Assembly: GCA_018714645.1 (NCBI GenBank)
Contig: DVND01000019.1
Span: 1-51,030 of the forward strand
DNA from: Candidatus Avimonoglobus intestinipullorum
GTDB lineage: Bacteria > Bacillota > Clostridia > UBA1381
DNA length: 51,030 bases
Direction: 5' to 3'
A program made the translations under genes and the position numbers. The number at the start of each line of letters is the position of its first letter. Position 1 is the first letter of the stretch. A model generated the notes under the pieces. It was given only the letters and a program-made list of their open reading frames with translations. It did not search any database and had not been told where the DNA came from. Shown piece after piece: positions 27,871 to 40,755 of this stretch.

Positions 27871-27906
27871 AAAAAGATGGCGGACAAAGCAGTCCGCCAT
27901 CTTTTT
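27871..27906. terminator. bidirectional intrinsic terminator
   Basis: AAAAAGATGGCGGAC-aaagca-GTCCGCCATCTTTTT between convergent gyrB and the radical SAM gene. Confidence 0.85.
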
Positions 27907-28510
27907 ATTCTGAATAATTCCGGACCCGGAACTGTACGCCAATATCCTCTGCAATGTGCCGGCAGGCTTCGATGTCCTCCGGCGAAATGACGTCCACAAT
28001 GCTCAAAATCACATTGGGCACATGCGCCTTCGCTTTTTCGGCAAAATCCAGCATCGCGTCAAAGCCTTTTTCGCCATAGTCGCAGATGCACAGCTCATTG
28101 TACTCCCGCGCATTTTTCGCATTCAGGCTGATGGAAAGGGTGTCGATCACGCCCTCCATCTCGGGCGTGATATCGCGCCCATTATAAATATTCCCGTGCC
28201 CGTTCGTATTGATACGGATGAGCGCAGCGCTGGTATCCTTAATAAACTTTGCAGCCTGCAGGCACACATCCGCCCGCAGCAACGGCTCACCGTAGCCGCA
28301 AAAAATGATGTGTTCATACCGCTTGTAATCCGCTTTTTGCAGCGCTTCCACCACTTCTTCATAGCTTGGCTCATGCTCCAGCCAAAGATCAATCCCGTCC
28401 ACGCCGGAGGGCGTAAAACGGATGCAGAACTTGCAGCGGTTCGTACAGCGGTTCGTCAAATTGACATAGAGCTGGTTTTGGTATTGATAAACAACATTCA
28501 TGGCGCTCAT
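27905..28510 (-). CDS. TatD-associated radical SAM protein (TIGR04038-like)
   Basis: 201 aa. CxxxCxxC cluster motif in LTNRCTNRCKFCIR. Small half-barrel size. Lies 3 nt downstream of a tatD-family gene, which defines the family as I recall it. Confidence 0.75.
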   Translation of the reverse strand: MSAMNVVYQYQNQLYVNLTNRCTNRCKFCIRFTPSGVDGIDLWLEHEPSYEEVVEALQKADYKRYEHIIFCGYGEPLLRADVCLQAAKFIKDTSAALIRINTNGHGNIYNGRDITPEMEGVIDTLSISLNAKNAREYNELCICDYGEKGFDAMLDFAEKAKAHVPNVILSIVDVISPEDIEACRHIAEDIGVQFRVRNYSE

Positions 28511-28513
28511 GGC

Positions 28514-29284
28514 CTAACCCTCGATTCTAAAACATTTTTTTGCATTTTCACAAGTCTGTGCAGCAATTTTTTCCACAGATACGCCTTTTATCTCCGCCAG
28601 TTTTTCAGCGACATAATGGATGTACAAGGAACTGTTCCGCTTGCCGCGATGCGGCTCCGGCGTCAGATAGGGGCAGTCCGTTTCAATCAAAATCCGGTCC
28701 AGCGGCACATACGCCGCCACCTCCGCAGGGCGCACTGCTTTTTTAAAGGTCAGCGACCCGCCGAATGCAATGTACATGCCCCAATCCAAAACCTCCCGCG
28801 CCATCTCGACACTGCCTGCATAACAATGGAACACGCCTCCAACATCGCGCACCCCGTGTGCGCGCAGAATGTCCATGGTGTCCTGATGCGCGTCGCGGTC
28901 ATGGATAATGACAGGCATATCCAGTTCCTTTGCCGCCTCCACCTGCGCCGCAAACCACTTTTTCTGCACGTCCCTGGGGGAAAAATCGTAATAGTAATCC
29001 AGCCCGATTTCACCAATCGCTTTTACCTTCGGCAACGCTGCATATTTTTTCAGTTCCTCCAAATCAGCCTGCCGCATGTGCGCCGCCTCATGCGGATGTA
29101 CACCCACGGCGGCATAAATAAACGGATACCGTTCCGTCAGCGGCAGAATATCCTGCATTTCACACAAATCCGAGCAGGCATTCATGATATAGGATACATG
29201 GTTTTCCTGCATTTGGGACAATAACGCATCCCTGTCCGCTTCAAACCGTTCATCATTATAATGCGCATGGGAATCAAAAAACAT
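28514..29284 (-). CDS. tatD: TatD-family metal-dependent hydrolase/DNase
   Basis: 256 aa with MFFDSHAHY, AIGEIGLDYYY, IHDRDAH, VFHCY.GS and ETDCPYL motifs. Confidence 0.92.
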   Translation of the reverse strand: MFFDSHAHYNDERFEADRDALLSQMQENHVSYIMNACSDLCEMQDILPLTERYPFIYAAVGVHPHEAAHMRQADLEELKKYAALPKVKAIGEIGLDYYYDFSPRDVQKKWFAAQVEAAKELDMPVIIHDRDAHQDTMDILRAHGVRDVGGVFHCYAGSVEMAREVLDWGMYIAFGGSLTFKKAVRPAEVAAYVPLDRILIETDCPYLTPEPHRGKRNSSLYIHYVAEKLAEIKGVSVEKIAAQTCENAKKCFRIEG

Positions 29285-29295
29285 CCAACCGCCTC

Positions 29296-30204
29296 CTAAA
29301 ACCCGCTCTGACTAAAATAGTTCATCCAATCGCCCGATACAATCCAGTTGATCATGACCGCGCCATTGAAAAGAACCACCAGCGCCAAAAATAAAATCGA
29401 TCCCACGGAAACACCTATCTTCGCAGCTCCCGGGGCAGTGACCGCCACGCGCCAAAGCCCGTTCTCCGTTTTGAAATACCGCCACAGCAAAACCGGCGCA
29501 AGCGCTGCAAGCGCCACCGTGAAAAACACGCTCAGTCCATCCACCCATACGGCTTGTAACTCATACAACAGCATCGTCAACAAGCTCACCCCGTTAAACA
29601 CGGCGTGCATGATGATGCATGCAAGCAATGAGCCGGAGCTATACCGTACAAGGCCAAACAGTATGCCGAGAAAAAAAATCGGGGCCATGGACCGGATGTC
29701 CATGTGCATCATGGTAAAAATCAGCGCGCTGATAAAAATCGCCGCCAGTGCCCCATAGGGCTCTAACAGCTTCATCATCACACCCCTGCACAGCAATTCC
29801 TCCAGCACAGGCGCGGCAATACAAAGCACCGCAAACGCCAGCAAAATATCCCCTGCCGTCTGCATCCCCATAAACTCGTCCGGCTGTGGGCCAAACAACA
29901 AATTCAGCAACGCATTGAGCGGGACCATCGCCAATATGATAAACCGCGAAACGGCCAGCGGCAGGACTATATAATACCCCGTCCTGCTTTTGTCAAAACA
30001 GCACTCCACTGCCAGCGGCGTTCCATTGGTGTACAACAGCAGCATTCCAATACCGATGGGCACAAACAAAAAACACTCCCCAACCAATGAAGCCAGGTAC
30101 GTATTGATCAGCGGATACAGCAGCATCAGCAGTGCCGGCGGGATCTGGATCAGAACCACCGCCAGCAGCGCCAGCCACCACGCGATTTGATATCCCCTAT
30201 TCAC
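29296..30204 (-). CDS. CPBP-family intramembrane glutamic endopeptidase (CAAX protease/Abi)
   Basis: 302 aa and polytopic, with motif 1 EELLCRG, motif 2 FTMMH and motif 3 HAVFNG. Confidence 0.85.
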   Translation of the reverse strand: MNRGYQIAWWLALLAVVLIQIPPALLMLLYPLINTYLASLVGECFLFVPIGIGMLLLYTNGTPLAVECCFDKSRTGYYIVLPLAVSRFIILAMVPLNALLNLLFGPQPDEFMGMQTAGDILLAFAVLCIAAPVLEELLCRGVMMKLLEPYGALAAIFISALIFTMMHMDIRSMAPIFFLGILFGLVRYSSGSLLACIIMHAVFNGVSLLTMLLYELQAVWVDGLSVFFTVALAALAPVLLWRYFKTENGLWRVAVTAPGAAKIGVSVGSILFLALVVLFNGAVMINWIVSGDWMNYFSQSGF

Positions 30205-33431: not shown

Positions 33432-33467
33432 AAAAAAAGACGGAGACTTCCGTCTCCGCCTTTTTTT
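33432..33467. terminator. bidirectional intrinsic terminator
   Basis: A7 - CGGAGAC-ttcc-GTCTCCG - T7. Ends the minus-strand three-gene secreted operon and insulates it from tyrA. Confidence 0.8.
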
Positions 33468-33505: not shown

Positions 33506-33667
33506 TTACCATTCGTATGAAATACCCATATCGCCGCTGTTCCCGGTGATATCGCTGACATCGTTCAAATTTTCCATGTCAACAACAGGTTCTTCGCCGC
33601 TGACTGTGATGATGTCTTCAACTTCGAACTTTTTGATTTCGATTGATGGCTTTTCATATATTTTCAT
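33506..33667 (-). CDS. 53-aa acidic, cysteine-free small peptide of unknown function
   Basis: The ATG at 33667 is preceded by AAAGGTGG at about 8 nt, and lies 19 nt after the stop of the upstream gene. Product: MKIYEKPSIEIKKFEVEDIITVSGEEPVVDMENLNDVSDITGNSGDMGISYEW. There is no signal peptide or TM segment. The ORF-track start at 33739 overlaps the upstream gene and lacks an RBS. Confidence 0.6.
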   Translation of the reverse strand: MKIYEKPSIEIKKFEVEDIITVSGEEPVVDMENLNDVSDITGNSGDMGISYEW

Positions 33668-33686
33668 AACCTTATACCACCTTTCT

Positions 33687-34919
33687 TTACTGTGCCGCCG
33701 GGAATGCCACGGCCGCAGAATCTGTCGCCGCACCAACACCGGTTGTTACGTTAGAAGTGCCTGTATAGTCACCGGCAATATCCGTCAGGATACCGATGAT
33801 GAAGGACAGTTCGCCCTGGATGTCACCGTAGTTGATAACCTTGAACGTCACTTCTTTGCCTTCGCCGTCTGCCGTCGGGCCAGCAACAACAACGTTTGCA
33901 TCCGTGATGGATTCGCCGTTGCCGTTCATGGTAACGTCAAAGTATACGCCGCCCGTACCGTTGTTCGCTGTGATATCGGTTGTCGGCTGCTGCGGCTGCG
34001 GAGCTTCCTTCTTAGGAACAGTTACAGTCGCTGTGCCGGATACACTGTCGTCAGCATCAGAAGTAGCTGTGATTGTGATCGTCTGATCTTCATCTGTAGC
34101 AGCAGGAGCTGTGAATACGCCCTCTTCTGTGATTGTACCAGCAGTTGCGCTCCATGTTACATTCTGATCTGAATACGGATTGTCATCAGAACCGATAACT
34201 TCCGCTGTGAAGGTCTCCTGCGCTTCGCCTGCAACTGTTGCAGTTGCCGGTGTAACGTTTACAGATTTAACTGTGATTGCCGGAGGAGTGGGTTCTGTAT
34301 AAATGTATTCAGCCGTAATGGTGTCAAAATTACCATTTCCATCGCTTCTATACGTGGTGTTGTTGATCAATTGTCCAAGAGAAACACCACTAACTTCATA
34401 TATTTGTGAAGAAGCAATTAAATTGTCAAAACTCTTAACCAGATTATATTTTTGCACATCTTCTAATGTCATATCAGAATCCTGTAAAGTACAATTTAAT
34501 CTAAATAAGGCATCCCCATTTTGAGCAAACTCATATGGATTAGATACACCAAACGCATATGTTACACTCTTTCCATCAACAGTTACCGGTTGGCCTACAA
34601 TAGCCATACCATTAATAGCACTAAACAAAGTGTCTACTTCATCACTTAAAGTAAGATTAACCTGAATAGTGTTAAATCCACTTGCTGTTGCGCCTGAATA
34701 TTCGCCCCAATCGTTATCATACTGTACACCATACTCAGCGTCAGATGATATTGAGAACTCTACAATAGCCCTACCACTCCGAACTTCTGTAACCTGTCCT
34801 GTAATTTTAGGATTAACAGATTCTGCTTCCGGAGTTGCGGCACTAACACTGCTGACAAAAGTCAACATCATGCTGCAGGATATAGCAACTGACAGCAAAG
34901 ATGAAACAATCTTTTTCAT
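33687..34919 (-). CDS. secreted multidomain protein: N-terminal cohesin-like beta module, Big_2 Ig-like domain, C-terminal beta module
   Basis: 410 aa. Signal peptide MKKIVSSLLSVAISCSMMLTFVSSVSA. A clear Big_2-type segment (VKSVNVTPATATVAGEAQETFTAEVIG...VTWSATAGTITEEGVFTA...ITITATSDADDSVSGTATVTV). The N-terminal 175 or so aa are beta-rich, and the cohesin-like call rests on size and pattern only. Confidence 0.7.
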   Translation of the reverse strand: MKKIVSSLLSVAISCSMMLTFVSSVSAATPEAESVNPKITGQVTEVRSGRAIVEFSISSDAEYGVQYDNDWGEYSGATASGFNTIQVNLTLSDEVDTLFSAINGMAIVGQPVTVDGKSVTYAFGVSNPYEFAQNGDALFRLNCTLQDSDMTLEDVQKYNLVKSFDNLIASSQIYEVSGVSLGQLINNTTYRSDGNGNFDTITAEYIYTEPTPPAITVKSVNVTPATATVAGEAQETFTAEVIGSDDNPYSDQNVTWSATAGTITEEGVFTAPAATDEDQTITITATSDADDSVSGTATVTVPKKEAPQPQQPTTDITANNGTGGVYFDVTMNGNGESITDANVVVAGPTADGEGKEVTFKVINYGDIQGELSFIIGILTDIAGDYTGTSNVTTGVGAATDSAAVAFPAAQ

Positions 34920-34940: not shown

Positions 34941-35561
34941 TTAATTTACAGTCGTTGTTCCCAACGATGATTGTCCCAAGATATGTCCAAACACTGCAGC
35001 AACATCACCGACATCTATACCTTTAATGCCGTCACAATCTGCCGCAATAAGATTGTTGCCTTCTAACGGAATTGTATTCAAAATCTGGCCAAAAATAGCC
35101 GCAACGTCGCCAACGTCAATTCCTGGTATTCCATCACAATCACCTAACTGAATCGTGATTCCTCCGCCTTCACCAACAGCAACCTCACCGACTAATATAC
35201 CATCGGCATCAATGTTTTCCCCACCGATTTTCACAACGTAGGTTTTACCCTCCTGCAAGCCGCCCTTTAAGCCCATGCCCGCAAACGTCGTCGTATTCGT
35301 TGCGTCATCCTGGTTAATGTACAGGATATCGTCAGCCGTCAACTCAGCCGGATTTGCCACAGCTTTGTCATAAATCAAGATTGTGGTCTGGCCGGACAAA
35401 CTTTCAAAAACTGTACCGGCAACAGTAACTGTTCCCGCAGCCTGGTCATATGTAAGGCTGCCATCCGGGAAAGCCGCTGCAAACGCTGAGGTCGCCAATG
35501 CCAGCGACACAGCGGCGGTTGCCGTGCACGCCAACACAAAGTTTCTCAAAGATTTTTTCAT
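34941..35561 (-). CDS. secreted protein with C-terminal duplicated dockerin-like segments
   Basis: Start at the ATG at 35561 (MKKSLRNFVLACTATAAVSLALATSAFA signal peptide), preceded by GAAAGGAGAA. The C-terminus carries two 22-residue segments, GDCDGIPGIDVGDVAAIFGQIL and ADCDGIKGIDVGDVAAVFGHIL, separated by 12 residues. Confidence 0.7.
   Translation of the reverse strand: MKKSLRNFVLACTATAAVSLALATSAFAAAFPDGSLTYDQAAGTVTVAGTVFESLSGQTTILIYDKAVANPAELTADDILYINQDDATNTTTFAGMGLKGGLQEGKTYVVKIGGENIDADGILVGEVAVGEGGGITIQLGDCDGIPGIDVGDVAAIFGQILNTIPLEGNNLIAADCDGIKGIDVGDVAAVFGHILGQSSLGTTTVN
34977..35144 (-). repeat. tandem duplicated 66-nt coding segments (dockerin-like 22-residue repeats)
   Basis: Segment 1 is 35079-35144 and segment 2 is 34977-35042, offset 102 nt. 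18 of 22 residues are identical, with many synonymous differences at the DNA level, indicating an old duplication. Confidence 0.75.
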
Positions 35562-35617
35562 GTTTGTTCTCCTTTCTAATTTTTGTTCTATGCCACGCCG
35601 CAAGCCGCCTCTCATCC

Positions 35618-35690: not shown

Positions 35691-35719
35691 ATTATAAACC
35701 CCTCTGCCATGAATTTCAA
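35691..35719 (-). promoter_or_regulatory. candidate sigma-A promoter of the dockerin-like/cohesin-like/peptide operon
   Basis: On the minus strand, TTGAAA (35714-35719), a 17-nt spacer and TATAAT (35691-35696). Confidence 0.55.
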
Positions 35720-35862: not shown

Positions 35863-38346
35863 CTATTTTTGGATGGAGACGGTCCGGTTCTCCCCGTCCC
35901 AATCCACGTTGTATCCGAGCCCTTCCGCCAGCACGCGCACCGGCACCAGCACGCGCCCATCGATCAGCCGCGCCGGCACGTCCAGGGCATATTCCTGCCC
36001 GTTCACCTGTGCGGCGGCGCTGTCCACCGTGAAGGAGCAGCTCTGCCCGCCGCCCGCGGCGGCTGCCGTTTGGGTTTCCTGATCCCATTCCACCTGCATG
36101 CCCAGCTGTTCAAAAATCAGCCGCATGGGCACCAGCGTCCGCCCGTTCTCCACCACCGGCAGGCTGTCAAAGCCCAGCGCCGTCCCGCCGGCGAACACCA
36201 GCACGCTGCCCTCCCCTTGCGGCAGCTCCAGCGCCTCCCGGCCGTTGATTACGAGATACCCGTCTACGTACTGCACGGTCTCAACCGGCCCGCCCACCGT
36301 ATAAGGCGACCAGTACACGCCGTCCCGGGAGGTGTAGAGGGTATCCCCCTCCGTGTAATAATACACGCCGCCCAGGGCTTCGATATAGCCGGGCGCGGCC
36401 CCCTGGTATTCCACCGGCAGGAAGGTCTCGCCGTCCGGGGTGAGGTATTCCGCGCCGTCCGCCACCACCGCCGCAAAGACGCCGCCGTTGTCCCGGGGGA
36501 GCTGCTTCCCCTCATAGGGCTGCCATTGCGCCCCGTCCGCCGACCAGTGCGCCGCCCCGTCCGCCGTGCGCACATAGTACCGGCCGCGGGCATAGCTTGC
36601 CTCCAGCGTCAGCGCCGGGAACAGGTATTGGCTTTGGATGTTCAGCTCCTTGTCCAGGAACACCACCGCCCCCGCCAGCTCCCGGTAGGGGGAATAGTAT
36701 CCCGGGAGGCCGTCCCACATGCGCCAGCGGGCCATATAGCCGTCCCCGGTTTCAATAAATTCGTAGTTGTTTTCGTTCCCGGCAAAAAACGTCTGCGTCT
36801 GGGGCGGCGCGTCCTTCAGCCGGACCGCAACATCGCCCCCAACGAGTTTCCTGGGGATTTGCTCCCGCTCCTCCGCCGCAAATTCCAGCTCCCGGGGGGT
36901 GTCGGAGATATACATGGAATTGCGGATGCCGCCGAACTGGTTGACCGGCAGGATGACCGTCAGCTCCACCTCCGTGACCTGCATGGGCAAAAGCTCCACG
37001 CAGGCCATCATGTCCGAGACCATGTCGTCCGTGGCGCCCTTGGAGACCACCGGCTGCAGGAGGTTCCCCTCCCCGTCCCGCACAATGACGATGGCATTGG
37101 AGGCGGAGCGCATGTTGTACTTCCAGTAGCGGGTCATGTAGCTGTTGTTGTTAATGGAAATGTGGTACGTCGTAGCCACGCCGAAATTGCCCACGCTGCA
37201 GGAAAAGCCGGTGTTATCGCGCTCTGTGGAGAGGGGGTAATTGGGCAGGTAGTCCGCCTCCTCCAAGCCCGTCACCAGGCCGTCGTAACCGATGGTGTCG
37301 CTGTGGTACGCGTCAAAGACCCACACGTCGTCCCGTTCCTCTTCGGGGATGTTGGGGCCGTAGTACAGGAGCTTGGAAGCGTCCTTATATTTGAATACCA
37401 TCAAATCCGACTCTGCGGCGTATTTCCCGTAAGAACCGTCAGCCTGGGGGTTTAAGTGCGTCACCCATTCCGTCATCTGATAGCCGTCGGGATTATATTG
37501 GTTGTAAATTTTCACAGGCAGGTACGTCCCCTCGGGGTTGTACTGGTCGACCTCGTATTCCAGCCAGGTATCCACGATGGGGAGATTGTCGGCGACGCCT
37601 TTGAACATCCTGTCCCGGACGTATTCCCCGAAGGCGGGCTCCGCCGCCATATGGCTGCGGTCGCCCACCGTGCCCGTGGAGCGCAGGGCGGCGATATTCA
37701 TATCCACCACGCCCGTCTGCACCTCAACCTCCCCCGCCAGGAACATGGTCCGGCGGAAGACGACGGGGCTGTAGTTTTCCACGAAGCTGCTGAGCCATAC
37801 GGTCTCCCCTTTTTTCAGCTCCACCGTCACAGGTTCCTGCGGCTCCCCCGCCTCGTAGACGATGGCGCTTTTGAGCTGGTAAATATCTTCGCCCAGCATC
37901 CGGGCGCAGGCGTTTAAGTGGGCGTAGCTGTCCTCCTCGGCGGTGAGGACGCCGTCATCCAGGTAATTGTGCAGCTGGGGCGTTTCAAACGCCGTCTTAT
38001 GGACGACAAACGTAGCGTCCTCCTTTGCGGTGATCTGCACATCCACCTCGATGTCGAAGCCCTTGTCCAGCAGCGTATACATCTCCCGCGGGCCGGTGTG
38101 GTTGATGACCGAGATGTAGAGGCTGTAGTAATCCGGGCCTAAATCTTCATTGTTCATCAGATATTTGGGGTTCTCATTGGAGGTGTCGGCCAGCCATTCG
38201 TTGGTAATGGCCTCCGGGTTGTTGAAGTAGATGAATTTCCCGCCGGCGCGGGGCGTAAAAACCAGGTCGCAGGGCTGCTGCGTAACAGCCTGGGCCGGCG
38301 CGGCGGACAGGAGTATCAAAAACAGCGCGATGATGTATTTTTTCAT
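35863..38346 (-). CDS. large secreted protein: unknown ~560-aa N-terminal region, Asp-box (BNR-like) repeats, two C-terminal stalk (copper-amine-oxidase-N-like) domains
   Basis: 827 aa. Signal peptide MKKYIIALFLILLSAAPAQA. Asp-box-like S/T-x-D-G-x-x-W/F motifs (SADGAQW, SRDGVYW, TPDGETF). The C-terminus has two stalk-type segments (RTLVPMRLIFEQLGMQVEWD and RVLVPVRVLAEGLGYNVDWDGENRTVSI). Confidence 0.75.
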   Translation of the reverse strand: MKKYIIALFLILLSAAPAQAVTQQPCDLVFTPRAGGKFIYFNNPEAITNEWLADTSNENPKYLMNNEDLGPDYYSLYISVINHTGPREMYTLLDKGFDIEVDVQITAKEDATFVVHKTAFETPQLHNYLDDGVLTAEEDSYAHLNACARMLGEDIYQLKSAIVYEAGEPQEPVTVELKKGETVWLSSFVENYSPVVFRRTMFLAGEVEVQTGVVDMNIAALRSTGTVGDRSHMAAEPAFGEYVRDRMFKGVADNLPIVDTWLEYEVDQYNPEGTYLPVKIYNQYNPDGYQMTEWVTHLNPQADGSYGKYAAESDLMVFKYKDASKLLYYGPNIPEEERDDVWVFDAYHSDTIGYDGLVTGLEEADYLPNYPLSTERDNTGFSCSVGNFGVATTYHISINNNSYMTRYWKYNMRSASNAIVIVRDGEGNLLQPVVSKGATDDMVSDMMACVELLPMQVTEVELTVILPVNQFGGIRNSMYISDTPRELEFAAEEREQIPRKLVGGDVAVRLKDAPPQTQTFFAGNENNYEFIETGDGYMARWRMWDGLPGYYSPYRELAGAVVFLDKELNIQSQYLFPALTLEASYARGRYYVRTADGAAHWSADGAQWQPYEGKQLPRDNGGVFAAVVADGAEYLTPDGETFLPVEYQGAAPGYIEALGGVYYYTEGDTLYTSRDGVYWSPYTVGGPVETVQYVDGYLVINGREALELPQGEGSVLVFAGGTALGFDSLPVVENGRTLVPMRLIFEQLGMQVEWDQETQTAAAAGGGQSCSFTVDSAAAQVNGQEYALDVPARLIDGRVLVPVRVLAEGLGYNVDWDGENRTVSIQK

Positions 38347-38489: not shown

Positions 38490-39191
38490 ATGAACGTTGT
38501 AATTGAGCATTTATCCAAACGCTTCGGGGAAAAACCCGTCCTGCGGGACGTGGGGTTTACCTTTGAAAGCGGCAAGATTTACGGCCTCTTGGGCCGGAAC
38601 GGGGCCGGCAAAACCACCCTGTTCAACTGCCTGAACCGGGATATCAATGCCGACGGCGGCAGCTTTTATCTGGAGGAGGGCGGCGTGCGCCGGGCCGTAC
38701 AGGCCGGGGATATCGGCTACGTCCTCTCCACGCCGGCGGTGCCGGAATTCCTGACCGGGCGGGAATTTTTAAAATTCTTCCTGGACATCAACCCGCCGCA
38801 GGAGCCAAAATCCATCGACGGCTATTTCGACGATATGCGCATCGCCCCGGACGACCGGGACAAGCTGTTAAAGGACTATTCCCACGGCATGAAAAACAAA
38901 ATGCAGATGCTGGTGAACATCATCGCCGAACCCAACATCCTGCTGCTGGATGAACCGCTGACGTCGCTGGACGTGGTGGTGGCGGAAGAGATGAAGCAGC
39001 TGCTGCGCACGCTGAAAAACGGGCGGATCACTATTTTTTCCACGCATCTTCTGGACCTGGCGCTGGATTTGTGCGATGAAATCGTGCTCCTGAACCACGG
39101 TGTGCTGGAGCAGGTGGACAAGAGCAATCTGGACAGCCGCGAATTTAAGGAAAAAATCCTGGCGGCGCTGCAGGAGGACAGCCATGAATAA
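38490..39191 (+). CDS. ABC transporter ATP-binding protein
   Basis: 233 aa with Walker A GLLGRNGAGKTTL, a variant signature YSHGMKNK and Walker B LLLDEPLTSLD. Confidence 0.9.
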   Translation: MNVVIEHLSKRFGEKPVLRDVGFTFESGKIYGLLGRNGAGKTTLFNCLNRDINADGGSFYLEEGGVRRAVQAGDIGYVLSTPAVPEFLTGREFLKFFLDINPPQEPKSIDGYFDDMRIAPDDRDKLLKDYSHGMKNKMQMLVNIIAEPNILLLDEPLTSLDVVVAEEMKQLLRTLKNGRITIFSTHLLDLALDLCDEIVLLNHGVLEQVDKSNLDSREFKEKILAALQEDSHE

Positions 39192-40755
39192 GACACTGCG
39201 TATTTCATTTGCCCTCAGGAACACGTACCGGGTCAACAGCATTTTATATGCGCTCAAGCAGATCCCGCTGGTGAAGCGGCTGCTGCCGGACACGCTGTAT
39301 CAGGTGCGGGGGCTGAAGGTGTTTGCCAATGTGCTGTCGGTTCTTTGGGAAATCATCTCCGCCTTTCTGGGGAAGCTGGTATATCTTGCCGTGATGGTTT
39401 TCGGCGCGGGAATGCTTTACACAACCGCGCCGCGGGAACAGGTATTCCTGCACCTTCTGGTGCTTCTGACCATCCTCGGCGCGTTTGTGAACACGTTTAT
39501 GTTCAACCCGTCCAAAGACAAATATTACGCCATGATCCTCATGCGCATGGATGCGAAGGACTACACATTGGTCAATTATGGCTATGCCATTTTAAAGGTG
39601 CTGGCGGGCTTTCTTCCCTTCTGCATCCTGCTCGGCACGGCCGCCGGCGTACCGTTATGGATTTGCCTGCTGATCCCGTTTTTTGTCGCCGGGCTGAAAA
39701 TGACGGTTGCGGCATTCTCCCTTTGGGATTACGAAAAACACGGGACCATCCGGAACGAAAATGGGTTGGACAGGCTCGTCTGGGCGGCTGTCGCCATCCT
39801 GCTGGCGCTGGCCTATGGGCTGCCAGCTTTTGGGATCGTGCTCCCCGTCCCCGTTTGTGTGGGGTTCATGGCGCTGTGTATCCTGTCCGGCGCGGCGTCT
39901 GTCCGCAGGATATTGGCCTTTGGCCGCTACCGGGAACTGTACCAGCAGGTTCTCGCCGGTTCCGTAAATCAGATGGATGCCGCCAAACAGCGTTCATTGG
40001 AAGCGAGTCAAAAATTCATCTCCGCCGACGCCGGCATCACCAGCCGGAAAAAGGGGTTTGAATACCTGAACGACTTGTTCATAAAGCGGCACAAAAAAAT
40101 CCTCTGGAAGGCCTCCCAAAGCGTCGCAATCGTATGCGTTGTTTTGATAATTGCCGTTTTGACGGCATTCCAATTCCTTCCGGAATTTAAGGAAAAAACC
40201 AACGAATTGCTGATGGTATTCCTGCCGTATTTCGTGTTCATCATGTACGCCATCAACCGCGGGACGGGCTTCACGCGGGCGCTGTTTATGAACTGCGACC
40301 ACAGCCTGCTGACCTATCCCTTTTATAAACAGCCCAAAATGGTATTGAAACTGTTTGGTATCCGGCTGCGGGAGATCATCAAAATCAACCTGCTGCCGGC
40401 GGCGGTGATCGGCGCGGGGCTTGCGTTGCTGCTCTGGGCCTCCGGCGGGACGGACAACCCCGTCAATTACGCAGTGCTGTTTATTTCCATCATCTGTATG
40501 AGCATCTTCTTTTCCGTGCACTATCTGATGATTTATTACCTGCTGCAGCCCTACAACGCCGCAACAGAGATGAAAAACGCAACTTATCAAATTGTGCTGA
40601 CCGCCACGTATCTGGTATGCTTCTACATGATGCGGCTGCGGATGCCCACGCTGGTATTCGGGCTGCTGACCATTATTTTCTGCGTGCTGTACTGTGTCGT
40701 TGCGTGCATTTTGGTTTACCGCCTGGCGCCAAAAACATTTCGGCTGCGAAATTAA
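39184..40755 (+). CDS. polytopic membrane protein, putative ABC exporter permease component
   Basis: The ATG at 39184 (MNKTLRISFALRN...) overlaps the ATPase stop by 8 nt, suggesting translational coupling. 523 aa with two blocks of about 5-6 hydrophobic helices separated by a roughly 90-aa soluble linker. It resembles the Firmicute family called putative ABC exporter, recalled from memory and not verified. Confidence 0.65.
   Translation: MNKTLRISFALRNTYRVNSILYALKQIPLVKRLLPDTLYQVRGLKVFANVLSVLWEIISAFLGKLVYLAVMVFGAGMLYTTAPREQVFLHLLVLLTILGAFVNTFMFNPSKDKYYAMILMRMDAKDYTLVNYGYAILKVLAGFLPFCILLGTAAGVPLWICLLIPFFVAGLKMTVAAFSLWDYEKHGTIRNENGLDRLVWAAVAILLALAYGLPAFGIVLPVPVCVGFMALCILSGAASVRRILAFGRYRELYQQVLAGSVNQMDAAKQRSLEASQKFISADAGITSRKKGFEYLNDLFIKRHKKILWKASQSVAIVCVVLIIAVLTAFQFLPEFKEKTNELLMVFLPYFVFIMYAINRGTGFTRALFMNCDHSLLTYPFYKQPKMVLKLFGIRLREIIKINLLPAAVIGAGLALLLWASGGTDNPVNYAVLFISIICMSIFFSVHYLMIYYLLQPYNAATEMKNATYQIVLTATYLVCFYMMRLRMPTLVFGLLTIIFCVLYCVVACILVYRLAPKTFRLRN

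Follow-up and report, generated by a model that had tools for sequence, protein, structure and literature searches.

A small gene with a leader-like head directly behind a surface-protein gene in Candidatus Avimonoglobus intestinipullorum, from an unnamed peptide family of gut Clostridia

Gene organization of the locus

The window analysed here is the 51,030-nt stretch (positions 1 to 51,030) of contig DVND01000019.1 from the genome of Candidatus Avimonoglobus intestinipullorum (GCA_018714645.1; this genome is called G000 below, and contigs are given as C numbers). A three-gene operon on the minus strand encodes a dockerin-like secreted protein, a signal-peptide surface protein and a small peptide of 53 residues, MKIYEKPSIEIKKFEVEDIITVSGEEPVVDMENLNDVSDITGNSGDMGISYEW, and the positions of these features are collected in Table 1. 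The peptide gene is separated from the preceding stop codon by a 19-nt spacer, AGAAAGGTGGTATAAGGTT, which carries its own Shine-Dalgarno sequence, and it is followed by a hairpin and T-run which mark the end of the operon. The peptide is Cys-free, with a pI of 4.05 and a net charge of -9. The surface protein has no LPXTG motif and no C-terminal TM segment. Its last 105 codons form a C-terminal domain (CTD), which was modelled by AF2 as an Ig-like, 7-stranded beta-sandwich with pLDDT of 85.9 and pTM of 0.77, and for which Foldseek found only generic Ig-like matches with TM <= 0.57. The first gene of the operon is 75% identical to an orthologue that hits Pfam Dockerin_1, and the same triad of dockerin, cohesin/CTD and peptide genes recurs three times in one related locus (L063) and again in the related loci L064 and L065.

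Table 1. Positions of the features of the peptide operon in the window and of the candidate machinery genes elsewhere in the genome
Location	Position	Strand	Feature
Window	27905-28510		201-aa radical SAM gene next to TatD, about 5 kb from the peptide gene
Window	33436-33457	-	Intrinsic terminator hairpin followed by a T-run
Window	33506-33667	-	Peptide gene, 53 codons plus stop
Window	33599-33667	-	Codons 1-23, MKIYEKPSIEIKKFEVEDIITVS, conserved head with the YxxPx[ILV] RRE-type motif and the invariant Ser23
Window	33509-33598	-	Codons 24-53, variable acidic tail (putative core), ending in G-I-S-Y-E-W-COOH
Window	33677-33684	-	Shine-Dalgarno AAAGGTGG, 9 nt before the ATG
Window	33687-33689	-	Stop codon TAA of the preceding gene
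Window	33687-34919	-	410-aa signal-peptide surface protein with a Big-like Ig domain
Window	33690-34004	-	Last 105 codons of the 410-aa protein, predicted Ig-like CTD
Window	34941-35615	-	Dockerin-like secreted protein, likely start at the internal MKKSLRNF
Window	35691-35719	-	Sigma-70-like promoter match, 11 of 12 (TTGAAA-17-TATAAT), consensus match only
C180	5747-6130		PqqD-type RRE gene
C180	5762-5953		PqqD profile match, 67 bits, above the cut-off
C180	5260-5763		S24/S26 SpI-like peptidase ORF (candidate), directly behind the RRE
C97	2328-3050		HprK-like kinase gene
C97	2331-3023		Match to the kinase profile of the three relatives
C178	175-1818		MsbA-like ABC exporter (candidate)

The peptide gene is real and under selection

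The initial annotation described an acidic, Cys-free small ORF with its own Shine-Dalgarno sequence, and this observation was confirmed in both coordinates and product. Orthologues keep the reading frame despite in-frame indels, with an invariant N-terminus and a G[IV]x[YF]EW end. The dN/dS over codons 1-23 was 0-0.17 at dS of 0.3-3, whereas the tail evolves fast with dN/dS of 0.1-0.86, although its C-terminal G[IV]x[YF][EQ]W is kept. Over 39 paralogues and homologues the codon-position entropy was 0.90, 0.90 and 1.48 bits for positions 1, 2 and 3, and the invariant Ser uses both TCN and AGY codons; a DNA-level function of the conserved 70 nt was rejected on these two grounds. Programmed read-through or frameshifting that would join the two genes was also rejected, because the relative frame varies between loci (gaps of 13, 14, 17, 18, 19, 20 and 23 nt, or overlap), the peptide of the window has its own Shine-Dalgarno sequence, and the initiating Met-Lys is nearly invariant across the family. 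The suggestion that the gene may be missed by automated gene callers did not hold, since it is called in public assemblies and its exact sequence is indexed in 49 blocks of the sequence collection searched.

An unannotated family of acidic peptides

The peptide belongs to a large family with at least 866 clusters at 50% identity, and profile searches gave hits in 49 of 399 sampled Clostridia genomes (about 12%), with up to 16 copies per genome and seven in this one. Pfam and NCBIfam scans of the peptide gave nothing even at E <= 1, and sequence searches of the PDB returned only chance hits. Among 548 clusters at 90% identity none had a Pfam domain, and the few that carry a name are called 'hypothetical protein'. 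Searches of the text and supplements of papers for family sequence strings gave no relevant hit, and there was no match in plasmid and phage collections. Family members share a conserved 23-aa head, [Y/F]xxPx[ILVM]..F..(E)D.IT.S, and a variable acidic tail which ends in a class-specific aromatic motif (YEW in the present peptide). Among 254 members, of 29-87 aa and mostly low-complexity, 99.6% were net negative, 241 had no Cys and 13 contained it, and 75 ended in W; the peptide of the window has no signal peptide or TM segment.

Association with an Ig-like C-terminal domain

About 50 of 54 copies lie 0-23 nt behind a gene for a signal-peptide surface protein that ends in the Ig-like CTD. All seven copies in this genome follow signal-peptide proteins, as do 20 of 20 in two relatives (G015 and G024) and most of the other loci, but some copies stand alone without an upstream secreted-protein gene (loci L055-L058). 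The CTD profile hit exactly the seven peptide-preceding proteins of this genome, and in five genomes that contributed nothing to the profile, four of them from other taxonomic families, 10 of 12 CTD hits were followed by a peptide hit. The passenger domains of these proteins are very different (LRR, beta-helix, CBM, Big, cohesin). Tail class follows CTD class: between genomes, tail similarity was z = 3.75 when the CTDs were related and 0.27 when they were not, and in a Mantel test 0 of 500 permutations reached the observed value. All listed peptide hits lie in open frames of 36-115 aa, so the peptide is never fused to the CTD protein in any of them. Apart from the upstream gene, no recurring neighbour family was found, with at most 2 of 59 neighbours.

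In loci L045, L064 and L065 the CTD gene and the peptide are in frame and separated only by TAA and TAG. An AF2 model of this natural read-through fusion gave no confident docking, with mean pLDDT of 60 and the CTD part near 50, but only three sequences covered the CTD in that alignment; alignments with unfused CTD rows were left out because MAFFT dragged those rows onto the peptide region. Profile-profile comparison of peptide against CTD found no similarity, so the peptide is not a detached CTD strand by sequence.

Leader-like head and LPP-type genes in the carrier genomes

Across the 254 members the start of the head reads Y 234 or F 20, then xxPx, then I 95, L 62, V 38, M 34, F 13 or A 11, and the present peptide has Y4-E-K-P7-S-I9. 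This is the RRE-binding consensus [Y/W]xxPx[L/V/I/A/F/Y] quoted for lasso and linear polyphosphorylated peptide (LPP) leaders (PMC13381572). At the level of the published logo only, similarity to the LppA leaders is partial: the LppA logo YxxPxVLxHQxIxFETxxS (PMC13381572) shares with the family the Y, the P, a hydrophobic residue at +5, and a later F, an acidic residue, T and an invariant S, while the H-Q is missing and the spacing, including that of F-E-T, differs by one or two residues.

No maturase gene is adjacent to the peptide gene, either here or in about 50 related loci, but genes of LPP type lie elsewhere in the same genomes. A discrete PqqD-type RRE is encoded in this genome (Table 1), and its orthologue in the same-genus relative G002 hits PqqD at E = 7.7e-19. 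The ORF directly behind it is 40-43% identical (E of 1e-25 to 5e-27) to proteins that hit Peptidase_S24/S26, but this copy has no Pfam hit of its own and TIGR02228 matches were below the cut-off; adjacency of RRE and peptidase was seen in at least nine relatives. The HprK-like kinase matches the profile of the three relatives at E = 7.4e-73 and has a Walker-type SGVGKTTH motif, although its Pfam Hpr_kinase_C hit is weak (E = 0.0099), and the kinase is adjacent to the RRE in many relatives. An NTP_transf_5 nucleotidyltransferase was not found in this 82%-complete MAG but is present in G002. The exporter homologue (ABC_membrane plus ABC_tran, 33% identity, E = 2e-97) is only a candidate, because exporters of this type are common.

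In relatives, parts of this gene set are clustered. Contig C38 of G015 has kinase, PqqD and NTP_transf_5 genes, with an SpI-like match in the uncalled gap between the last two and capsule genes next to the cluster by eye, and contig C60 of G015 has kinase, PqqD and ABC exporter genes; no precursor was called beside these G015 clusters. Contig C31 of G002 has a CTD protein, a peptide, an SLH protein, a kinase and an S24/S26 peptidase. This is the only one of about 55 loci where a peptide lies next to the kinase and the peptidase, and about 50 of 54 peptides are not next to any machinery.

Within the taxonomic family the kinase occurs in 15/15 peptide-positive versus 3/10 negative genomes (Fisher p = 2.5e-4), NTP_transf_5 in 13/15 versus 3/10, and PqqD in 14/15 versus 5/10, a correlation which is not corrected for shared ancestry. 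None of the seven genomes lacking the kinase has the peptide. The machinery also occurs in genomes where the profile finds no peptide, namely 3 of 10 in the same family and most genomes of the neighbouring families, and therefore it may serve other substrates.

Interpretation

The initial annotation compared the N-terminus with leaders of radical-SAM-modified precursors and offered a signalling or adaptor peptide, an unmodified partner of the two secreted proteins, or a precursor matured in trans, and this interpretation was partly supported. The leader-like N-terminus and the lack of an adjacent maturase held, and both maturation in trans and partnership with a secreted protein gained evidence. 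The partner is, more specifically, the Ig-like CTD of the immediately upstream protein and not both secreted proteins, whereas the radical-SAM flavour was not supported.

Our best, still tentative, reading is an LPP-like precursor matured in trans whose core serves the CTD of the upstream protein. In this view residues 1-23 form a leader of the [Y/W]xxPx[hydrophobic] type, a type which docks as a beta-strand onto a discrete PqqD-type RiPP recognition element (RRE), and which here most resembles the LppA leaders. The RRE would bind the leader, the tail would be modified, probably by phosphorylation on Ser/Thr, the leader would be cut off near the invariant T-x-S, and the acidic core would be exported. 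The core, whose last residues are specific for the class of CTD carried by the upstream protein, would then bind that domain outside the cell and serve its anchoring or assembly, in this operon together with a dockerin/cohesin-like pair. What our analysis establishes is that the gene is real and under selection, that the family has head/tail modularity, that the link to CTD proteins is near-obligate with tail class varying with CTD class, that the peptide co-occurs with the LPP-type genes, and that in one relative a peptide shares an operon with the kinase and the peptidase; RRE binding, modification including phosphorylation, leader cleavage, export and CTD binding are inferred from sequence and gene context alone. 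The lack of fusion to the adjacent CTD protein would also fit a peptide that stays in the cytoplasm.

A less likely alternative is an unmodified cytoplasmic escort or adaptor, which would bind the CTD of its cognate Sec substrate through the class-specific tail and keep it export-competent or correctly targeted, with the conserved head as a handle for a common cellular factor. The strong acidity, the lack of a signal peptide or TM segment, the tight spacing or overlap of the genes, which fits stoichiometric co-expression, the absence of fusion even where only two stop codons separate the frames, and the match of tail class to CTD class would all agree with this. Heads are slightly more alike within a genome across CTD classes (identity of 0.53 versus 0.48, p = 2.5e-5), but this effect is small and decides nothing. 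However, this view does not explain why the head matches an RRE-binding motif, why the family occurs in genomes with the RRE, kinase and nucleotidyltransferase set, or why one member sits in an operon with the kinase and the peptidase; some copies have no upstream secreted-protein gene, and private chaperones of 30-60 aa for Sec substrates are not known in Gram-positives.

It is more doubtful that the peptide is a free-standing RiPP, for example a signal, antimicrobial or matrix component, whose position reflects only shared regulation or hitch-hiking. The leader/core architecture, the in-trans machinery, the few copies that stand alone, and the unknown biological role of LPPs, whose clusters sit in capsule loci (PMC13381572), would allow it, but the association is with one particular domain across very different passengers and taxonomic families, tail motifs are conserved per CTD class between genomes, and up to 16 different cores per genome, each tied to its own surface protein, are hard to explain by co-regulation alone. 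An immunity-like antidote against the variable CTD is improbable: a variable domain with a co-varying small gene directly downstream does recall polymorphic toxin/immunity pairs, but the CTD is predicted to be a plain Ig-like sandwich with no toxin-like match, all the peptides share one conserved head, which immunity proteins of different classes do not, and they are very small and mostly low-complexity. The classical radical-SAM, lasso or double-glycine (PCAT-exported) peptides are largely refuted, in spite of the YxxP motif shared with lasso peptides, the Thr that would sit at position -2 as in lasso leaders if the core began at the invariant Ser, and the radical SAM gene 5 kb away, because the lasso B2 protease family PF13471 had no match above the cut-off in any of 41 relatives, an acceptor Asp/Glu at core positions 7-9 was not consistently present by eye, radical SAM genes were near only 2 of 59 neighbours, of which the one identified by sequence (locus L031) resembles the TatD-adjacent gene of the window, nearly all members lack Cys, the C39 peptidase family PF03412 was absent from G000, its genus (G001 and G002), G015 and most other carriers, and the head/tail junction is S followed by G, S, N, V or A, which is not a GG-type site.

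A wider possibility, which we consider unlikely but which is compatible with the data, is that gut Clostridia use a peptide-based surface-display code, in which dozens of different surface proteins (adhesins, lectins, cohesin scaffolds) end in one Ig-like sorting domain and each is paired with its own leader-bearing peptide. A single shared LPP-type pathway (RRE, kinase, nucleotidyltransferase, SpI-like peptidase, exporter) would modify and export these peptides, and the phosphorylated or nucleotidylated acidic core would act as the class-specific ligand or wall anchor for that domain. This would be a RiPP acting as a structural partner of a protein, and it would give the enigmatic LPP family its first biological role.

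If the favoured reading holds, it would link the LPP-type RiPPs, which were described only in 2026 and have no known function, to the assembly of cell-surface proteins. It would also reveal a new C-terminal sorting or anchoring domain for surface proteins of abundant but uncultured gut and rumen Clostridia that lack LPXTG or other known anchors, and it would show that RiPP precursors can be dispersed through a genome, one behind each client gene, where cluster-based genome mining cannot find them. Since the family is large and entirely unannotated, a curated model alone would improve the annotation of thousands of MAGs.

Comparison with known systems

The LPPs of Bacilli (PMC13381572) also have a small precursor with a conserved N-terminal region and a highly variable C-terminus, a YxxPx[V/I/L] RRE-binding motif followed by F, an acidic residue, T and S, a set of enzyme families of which members or candidates are present in the carrier genomes, and a link to cell-surface loci. 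In contrast, the present precursors are scattered at the 3' ends of surface-protein genes rather than inside the biosynthetic cluster, the leader logo differs, the machinery is split over several loci, phosphorylation is only inferred, and the hosts are uncultured gut Clostridia, which that paper does not mention. Paeninodin-type lasso peptide systems of Bacillota share a [Y/W]xxP leader recognised by a discrete PqqD-type RRE, and an HprK-like kinase and a nucleotidyltransferase as tailoring enzymes (PMC13381572), but here there is no B2 protease, no cyclase context and no consistent acceptor residue. As in the cohesin-dockerin surface assembly of Ruminococcaceae and Clostridia, this operon and several relatives encode a dockerin protein and a cohesin-like protein, here together with the peptide, and the idea of a class-specific tag binding a beta-sandwich module outside the cell is the same; however, the peptide is a separate, signal-less, leader-bearing gene product and not a domain of a secreted protein, and the CTD is not a cohesin according to Pfam or Foldseek. 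The cargo-specific acidic chaperones and adaptors of specialised secretion systems, such as T3SS class I chaperones and T7SS Lap-type partners, are likewise small, acidic, encoded next to the cargo gene and specific for the cargo, whereas the cargo here has an ordinary Sec signal peptide, and the peptides are much smaller and all share an RRE-type leader.

Structure and selection of the peptide gene

The open frame of 53 codons was confirmed at the position described in the initial annotation, and its translation gives MKIYEKPSIEIKKFEVEDIITVSGEEPVVDMENLNDVSDITGNSGDMGISYEW. The stop codon of the upstream gene is followed by a 19-nt spacer (AGAAAGGTGGTATAAGGTT), which holds the SD sequence AAAGGTGG, and the peptide has no Cys, a pI of 4.05 and a net charge of -9. 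The factual statements of the initial annotation were all correct except one, namely that gene callers may miss this ORF because of its size; they do find it, and the exact sequence is indexed in 49 blocks of the public collection. Its interpretation of the N-terminus as RiPP-leader-like, with maturation in trans as one of several options, was partly supported. The coordinates of the features discussed here are collected in the table below.

Features in the window, in its genome and in related loci (L, loci carrying family members; C, contigs of the genome of the window)
Feature	Location	Strand	Remarks
Peptide ORF	window 33506-33667	minus	53 codons
TAA of the upstream gene	window 33687-33689
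SD AAAGGTGG	window 33677-33684		9 nt before the ATG
Hairpin with a T-run	window 33457-33436		follows the stop of the peptide gene
Promoter match	window 35719-35691		11/12, ahead of the three-gene unit
Big-like/CTD protein	window 33687-34919		410 aa
Dockerin-like protein	window 34941-35615
Cu_amine_oxidN1 protein	window 35863-38346		827 aa, precedes the unit
ABC ATPase (233 aa) and membrane protein (523-551 aa)	window 38490-40755		transcribed in the opposite direction, upstream of the 827-aa gene
Radical SAM gene	window 27905-28510		201 aa, next to TatD
TatD	window 28514-29284
Counterpart of Rce1-like gene	window 29296-30204		302 aa, 3.3 kb from the peptide
Radical SAM look-alike	L031:9075-9677		2 kb from a family member
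Three dockerin, cohesin-like/CTD, peptide cassettes	L063:1026-7153		GCA_045603225.1
Dockerin, cohesin-like/CTD, peptide cassette	L064:2332-4365
In-frame junction of CTD gene and peptide	L045:5980-6000; L064:4186-4206; L065:4186-4206		two stop codons
Proteins with or resembling Cu_amine_oxidN1	L003:1712-2209; L010:1666-2133; L048:6147-6584; L049:5446-5889		145-165 aa, directly behind the peptide
405-aa genes	L057:4562-5779; L058:4560-5777		L058, Rce1-like (CPBP)
Unit in an apparent integrative element	L061:7250-7969 and L062
PqqD	C180, 5747-6130
S24/S26-like ORF	C180, 5260-5763		directly follows PqqD
HprK-like kinase	C97, 2328-3050
MsbA-like exporter	C178, 175-1818

The gene is under protein-level selection. 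Five orthologous clusters keep MKIYEKPS[IV]EIKKFEVEDIITVS unchanged, whereas the middle varies with in-frame indels and G[IV]x[YF]EW is kept at the very end. Against orthologous DNA, codons 1-23 showed dN/dS of 0-0.17 at dS 0.3-3, for example 8.5 synonymous against 3.5 non-synonymous changes to the orthologous locus L045, and the tail was much freer, with dN/dS of 0.1-0.86, partly saturated. Over 39 homologous heads, the entropy at codon positions 1, 2 and 3 was 0.90, 0.90 and 1.48 bits, respectively, and the invariant Ser is written with both TCN and AGY codons, which excludes a purely DNA-level function.

Distribution of the peptide family

A profile of the first 11 sequences found 866 representatives (50%-identity clusters) at E <= 1e-3 among 1.84 billion proteins, almost all of which were 29-87 aa. 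A second search found 548 clusters at 90% identity, none with a Pfam domain, and the few that carry a name are called 'hypothetical protein'; these come from MAGs labelled Clostridia, Ruminococcaceae and Oscillospiraceae, and loci from GTDB genomes add Acutalibacteraceae, Lachnospiraceae and one Acholeplasmatales MAG. In an even sample of the class, 49 of 399 genomes were positive, spread over many taxonomic families with up to 16 copies per genome, and all listed hits lie in open frames of 36-115 aa; the peptide is therefore never part of a larger protein. The genome of the window has 7 copies. Most of the paralogous copies lie at contig ends or on very short contigs (C1 at its end, C122 at its start, C175 of 2.5 kb, C42 and C161), and the near-identical CTD and peptide sequences, for example C175 versus C122 and C148, apparently break the assembly, so the copy number in MAGs is probably underestimated.

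The consensus is M-K-x-Y-x-K-P-x-h-E-h-x-x-F-x-V-E-D-I-I-T-x-S-(G), in which Ser23 is invariant. The tails are acidic, with a median net charge of -5 and 99.6% negative, they are low in Cys (13 of 254 members) and have no membrane-like stretch, and they often end in an aromatic motif, 75 of 254 ending in Trp. Searches of Pfam, NCBIfam and PDB sequences gave no match.

Association with the C-terminal domain of the upstream protein

In the genome of the window all seven copies lie just behind a gene for a signal-peptide protein of 292 to 777 aa. The same holds for 20 of 20 copies fetched from two relatives with many copies, where the gaps are 3-22 nt after correction of the starts, and for the further loci examined, with overlapping ATGA in loci L049 and L052. 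The exceptions are few: L055/L056 and L057/L058 stand alone, L050 has a larger gap, and L051 and L053 carry two peptides in tandem. The stand-alone copy of L058 lies head-to-head with a 405-aa Rce1-like (CPBP) intramembrane protease gene, L057 has an orthologous 405-aa gene in the same position, and a 302-aa gene in the window corresponds to the Rce1-like gene of the orthologous loci. CPBP proteases process some Gram-positive peptides, but this arrangement may be chance.

The upstream proteins carry unrelated passenger modules, including BspA-type LRR, Listeria-Bacteroides repeats, Big_1/Big_2, beta-helix, CBMs and F5/8-type C, and they have no LPXTG and no hydrophobic C-terminus. What they share is the last 100 or so residues, which fall into several BLAST classes but align with a common pattern ending in ..FGhxhxNhP.. 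followed by one or two strands. AF2 with this 43-sequence alignment predicted the window's copy as a 7-stranded beta-sandwich, with pLDDT 85.9 and pTM 0.77, and Foldseek found only generic Ig-like neighbours (best E 1.1e-3, TM <= 0.57). An HMM of this C-terminal domain (CTD) hit exactly the seven peptide-preceding proteins of the genome and nothing else, two of which were not in the seed. In five genomes that contributed nothing to the CTD profile, four from other taxonomic families and one from the same, 10 of 12 CTD hits are followed within about 70-120 nt, on the same strand, by a peptide hit.

Tail and CTD diversify together. Between genomes, tail similarity averaged z = 3.75 for pairs whose CTDs are related (n = 35) and 0.27 otherwise (n = 783), and in a Mantel test 0 of 500 permutations reached the observed value. 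The class signatures, identified by eye from these pairs, are [DE]WxxxW with the 'FGTYILP' CTD class, G[VI]x[FY][EQ]W-COOH with the class of the window, VD[FY]xx[IV]F[KA] with cohesin-CTD proteins and DFGxQxFS[IV]F with a fourth class. Co-inheritance of the gene pair explains part of this, but the retention of only the short terminal motif across genera points to a constraint imposed by the CTD.

In L045, L064 and L065, which are orthologous operons, the CTD gene and the peptide are in the same frame and separated by only TAA-GAA-AGG-TGG-TAG-ACA-GAT, so that two stop codons are all that prevents a fusion, yet no fusion was seen among the hits listed from 399 genomes. This natural read-through was used as a single chain for AF2, which gave a mean pLDDT of 60 with the CTD part near 50, a model too weak for any conclusion.

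Gene context of the unit

The unit in the window has three genes, the dockerin-like protein, which is 75% identical to an orthologue that hits Dockerin_1, the 410-aa Big-like/CTD protein and the peptide. The same triad of a small dockerin protein, a cohesin-like plus CTD protein and a 48-52-aa peptide occurs three times side by side on one contig of an NCBI MAG (L063), with weak Pfam Cohesin hits, and again in L064 and L065. Proteins with a Cu_amine_oxidN1 domain, or resembling one by eye, recur next to these units: an 827-aa one precedes the unit in the window, and short proteins that start in the same Cu_amine_oxidN1-like way lie behind the peptide in L003, L010, L048, L049 and L052, two of them confirmed by Pfam and the rest judged by eye. 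The ABC ATPase and the membrane protein, which has no Pfam match, lie upstream of the 827-aa gene and are conserved in the orthologous loci. The 201-aa radical SAM gene next to TatD has a look-alike near a family member in a different genus (L031, in the relative G015), which may reflect either conserved housekeeping synteny or a link to the peptide. In L061 and L062 a family member and its Big_2-rich upstream protein sit in what looks like an integrative element (integrases, resolvase, ImmA-like peptidase, eCIS core), and the gene behind the peptide carries a precomputed Pfam label PF27840 (ScmC), which was not reproduced with the local Pfam copy.

The leader-like head and the candidate machinery

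The Y-E-K-P-S-I of the head resembles lasso-type leaders, but the classical options failed. The lasso B2 protease family is absent from all 41 relatives, C39 transporters are absent from this genus and from copy-rich genomes, and no enzyme family recurs among 59 further neighbours (at most 2 of 59). On this evidence alone a cytoplasmic escort was favoured. The linear polyphosphorylated peptides (LPP), described in Nat Commun 2026 (PMC13381572), offered another lead. According to that paper, LppA precursors have a conserved N-terminus, YxxPxVLxHQxIxFETxxS, and variable C-termini, the YxxP part binds a discrete RRE (LppB), an HprK-like kinase (LppK) phosphorylates the core, and a SipW/SpI-like peptidase (LppS) removes the leader with the help of the RRE; the clusters sit in capsule loci of Bacilli, and their biological role is unknown.

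Over 254 members the head reads [Y 234 / F 20]xxPx[I 95, L 62, V 38, M 34, F 13, A 11], which fits the published RRE consensus, although the rest of the LppA logo is only partly shared (F, an acidic residue, T, S). Among relatives, contig C38 of G015 has an HprK-like kinase (246 aa), PqqD (86 aa) and NTP_transf_5 (433 aa), with an uncalled gap between the last two that holds an SpI-like match, and its flanking genes look like polysaccharide-synthesis genes by eye from the N-terminal sequences. Contig C60 of G015 has a cluster of a kinase (233 aa), PqqD (88 aa) and an ABC exporter (542 aa), preceded by a Cu_amine_oxidN1 protein, and no precursor-like ORF was called beside the G015 clusters. Contig C31 of G002, a genome of the same genus as the window, has a CTD-type protein (722 aa), a 52-aa family member, an SLH protein, a kinase (236 aa), an S24/S26 peptidase (156 aa) and a large secreted protein. 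The genome of the window has PqqD, followed directly by an S24/S26-like ORF with G-T-S-M-L-P-M-L, a kinase and an MsbA-like exporter, whereas NTP_transf_5 was not found in this 82%-complete MAG. The S24/S26-like ORF is 40-43% identical to the Pfam-positive ones but has no Pfam hit of its own, and the Pfam assignment of the kinase is weak (E = 0.0099).

Occurrence of the candidate machinery within the taxonomic family, not corrected for phylogeny
Gene family	Peptide-positive genomes	Peptide-negative genomes	Fisher p
HprK-like kinase	15/15	3/10	2.5e-4
NTP_transf_5	13/15	3/10	0.009
PqqD	14/15	5/10	0.023

None of the seven genomes without the kinase has the peptide. The kinase and RRE are adjacent in many of these genomes, and RRE and S24/S26-like ORFs are adjacent in at least nine. 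The machinery also exists in genomes where our profile finds no peptide: kinase, RRE, S24/S26 peptidase and NTP_transf_5 are present in three genomes (G004, G012 and G022) and in most genomes of two further taxonomic families (f3 and f4), which may hold diverged precursor families of the same pathway.

Discussion

Two independent lines of evidence now stand. The peptide is tied to the Ig-like CTD of the protein encoded just upstream, and we consider it likely that this reflects a functional partnership. That its head is a leader for an LPP-type pathway encoded in trans is, in our view, only somewhat more probable than not. In the most economical model combining both, the shared set of RRE, kinase, (nucleotidyltransferase) and peptidase would process all the scattered precursors, the leader would be removed near the invariant T-x-S, the modified acidic core would be exported, and the core would then meet the CTD of its cognate surface protein through its class-specific terminal motif, for anchoring or assembly. 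This combined model is tentative, and we hold it at slightly less than even; selection on the gene, its link to the CTD genes and the co-occurrence with the machinery are what our results show, whereas binding, modification, cleavage and export are inferred. The main rival, an unmodified cytoplasmic escort, appears unlikely; it is favoured by the complete absence of peptide-CTD fusions, but it does not explain the leader motif or the co-occurrence with the machinery.

The family and its CTD partner are absent from the Pfam, NCBIfam and PDB copies and from the literature searched. On present evidence the peptide is not a demonstrated LPP member, because the feature of a precursor inside the biosynthetic cluster is not fulfilled and the chemistry is inferred only. 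The LPP class is the nearest described system, and the peptides described here differ from it in having dispersed precursors hard-wired to client surface-protein genes, split machinery and a different leader logo.
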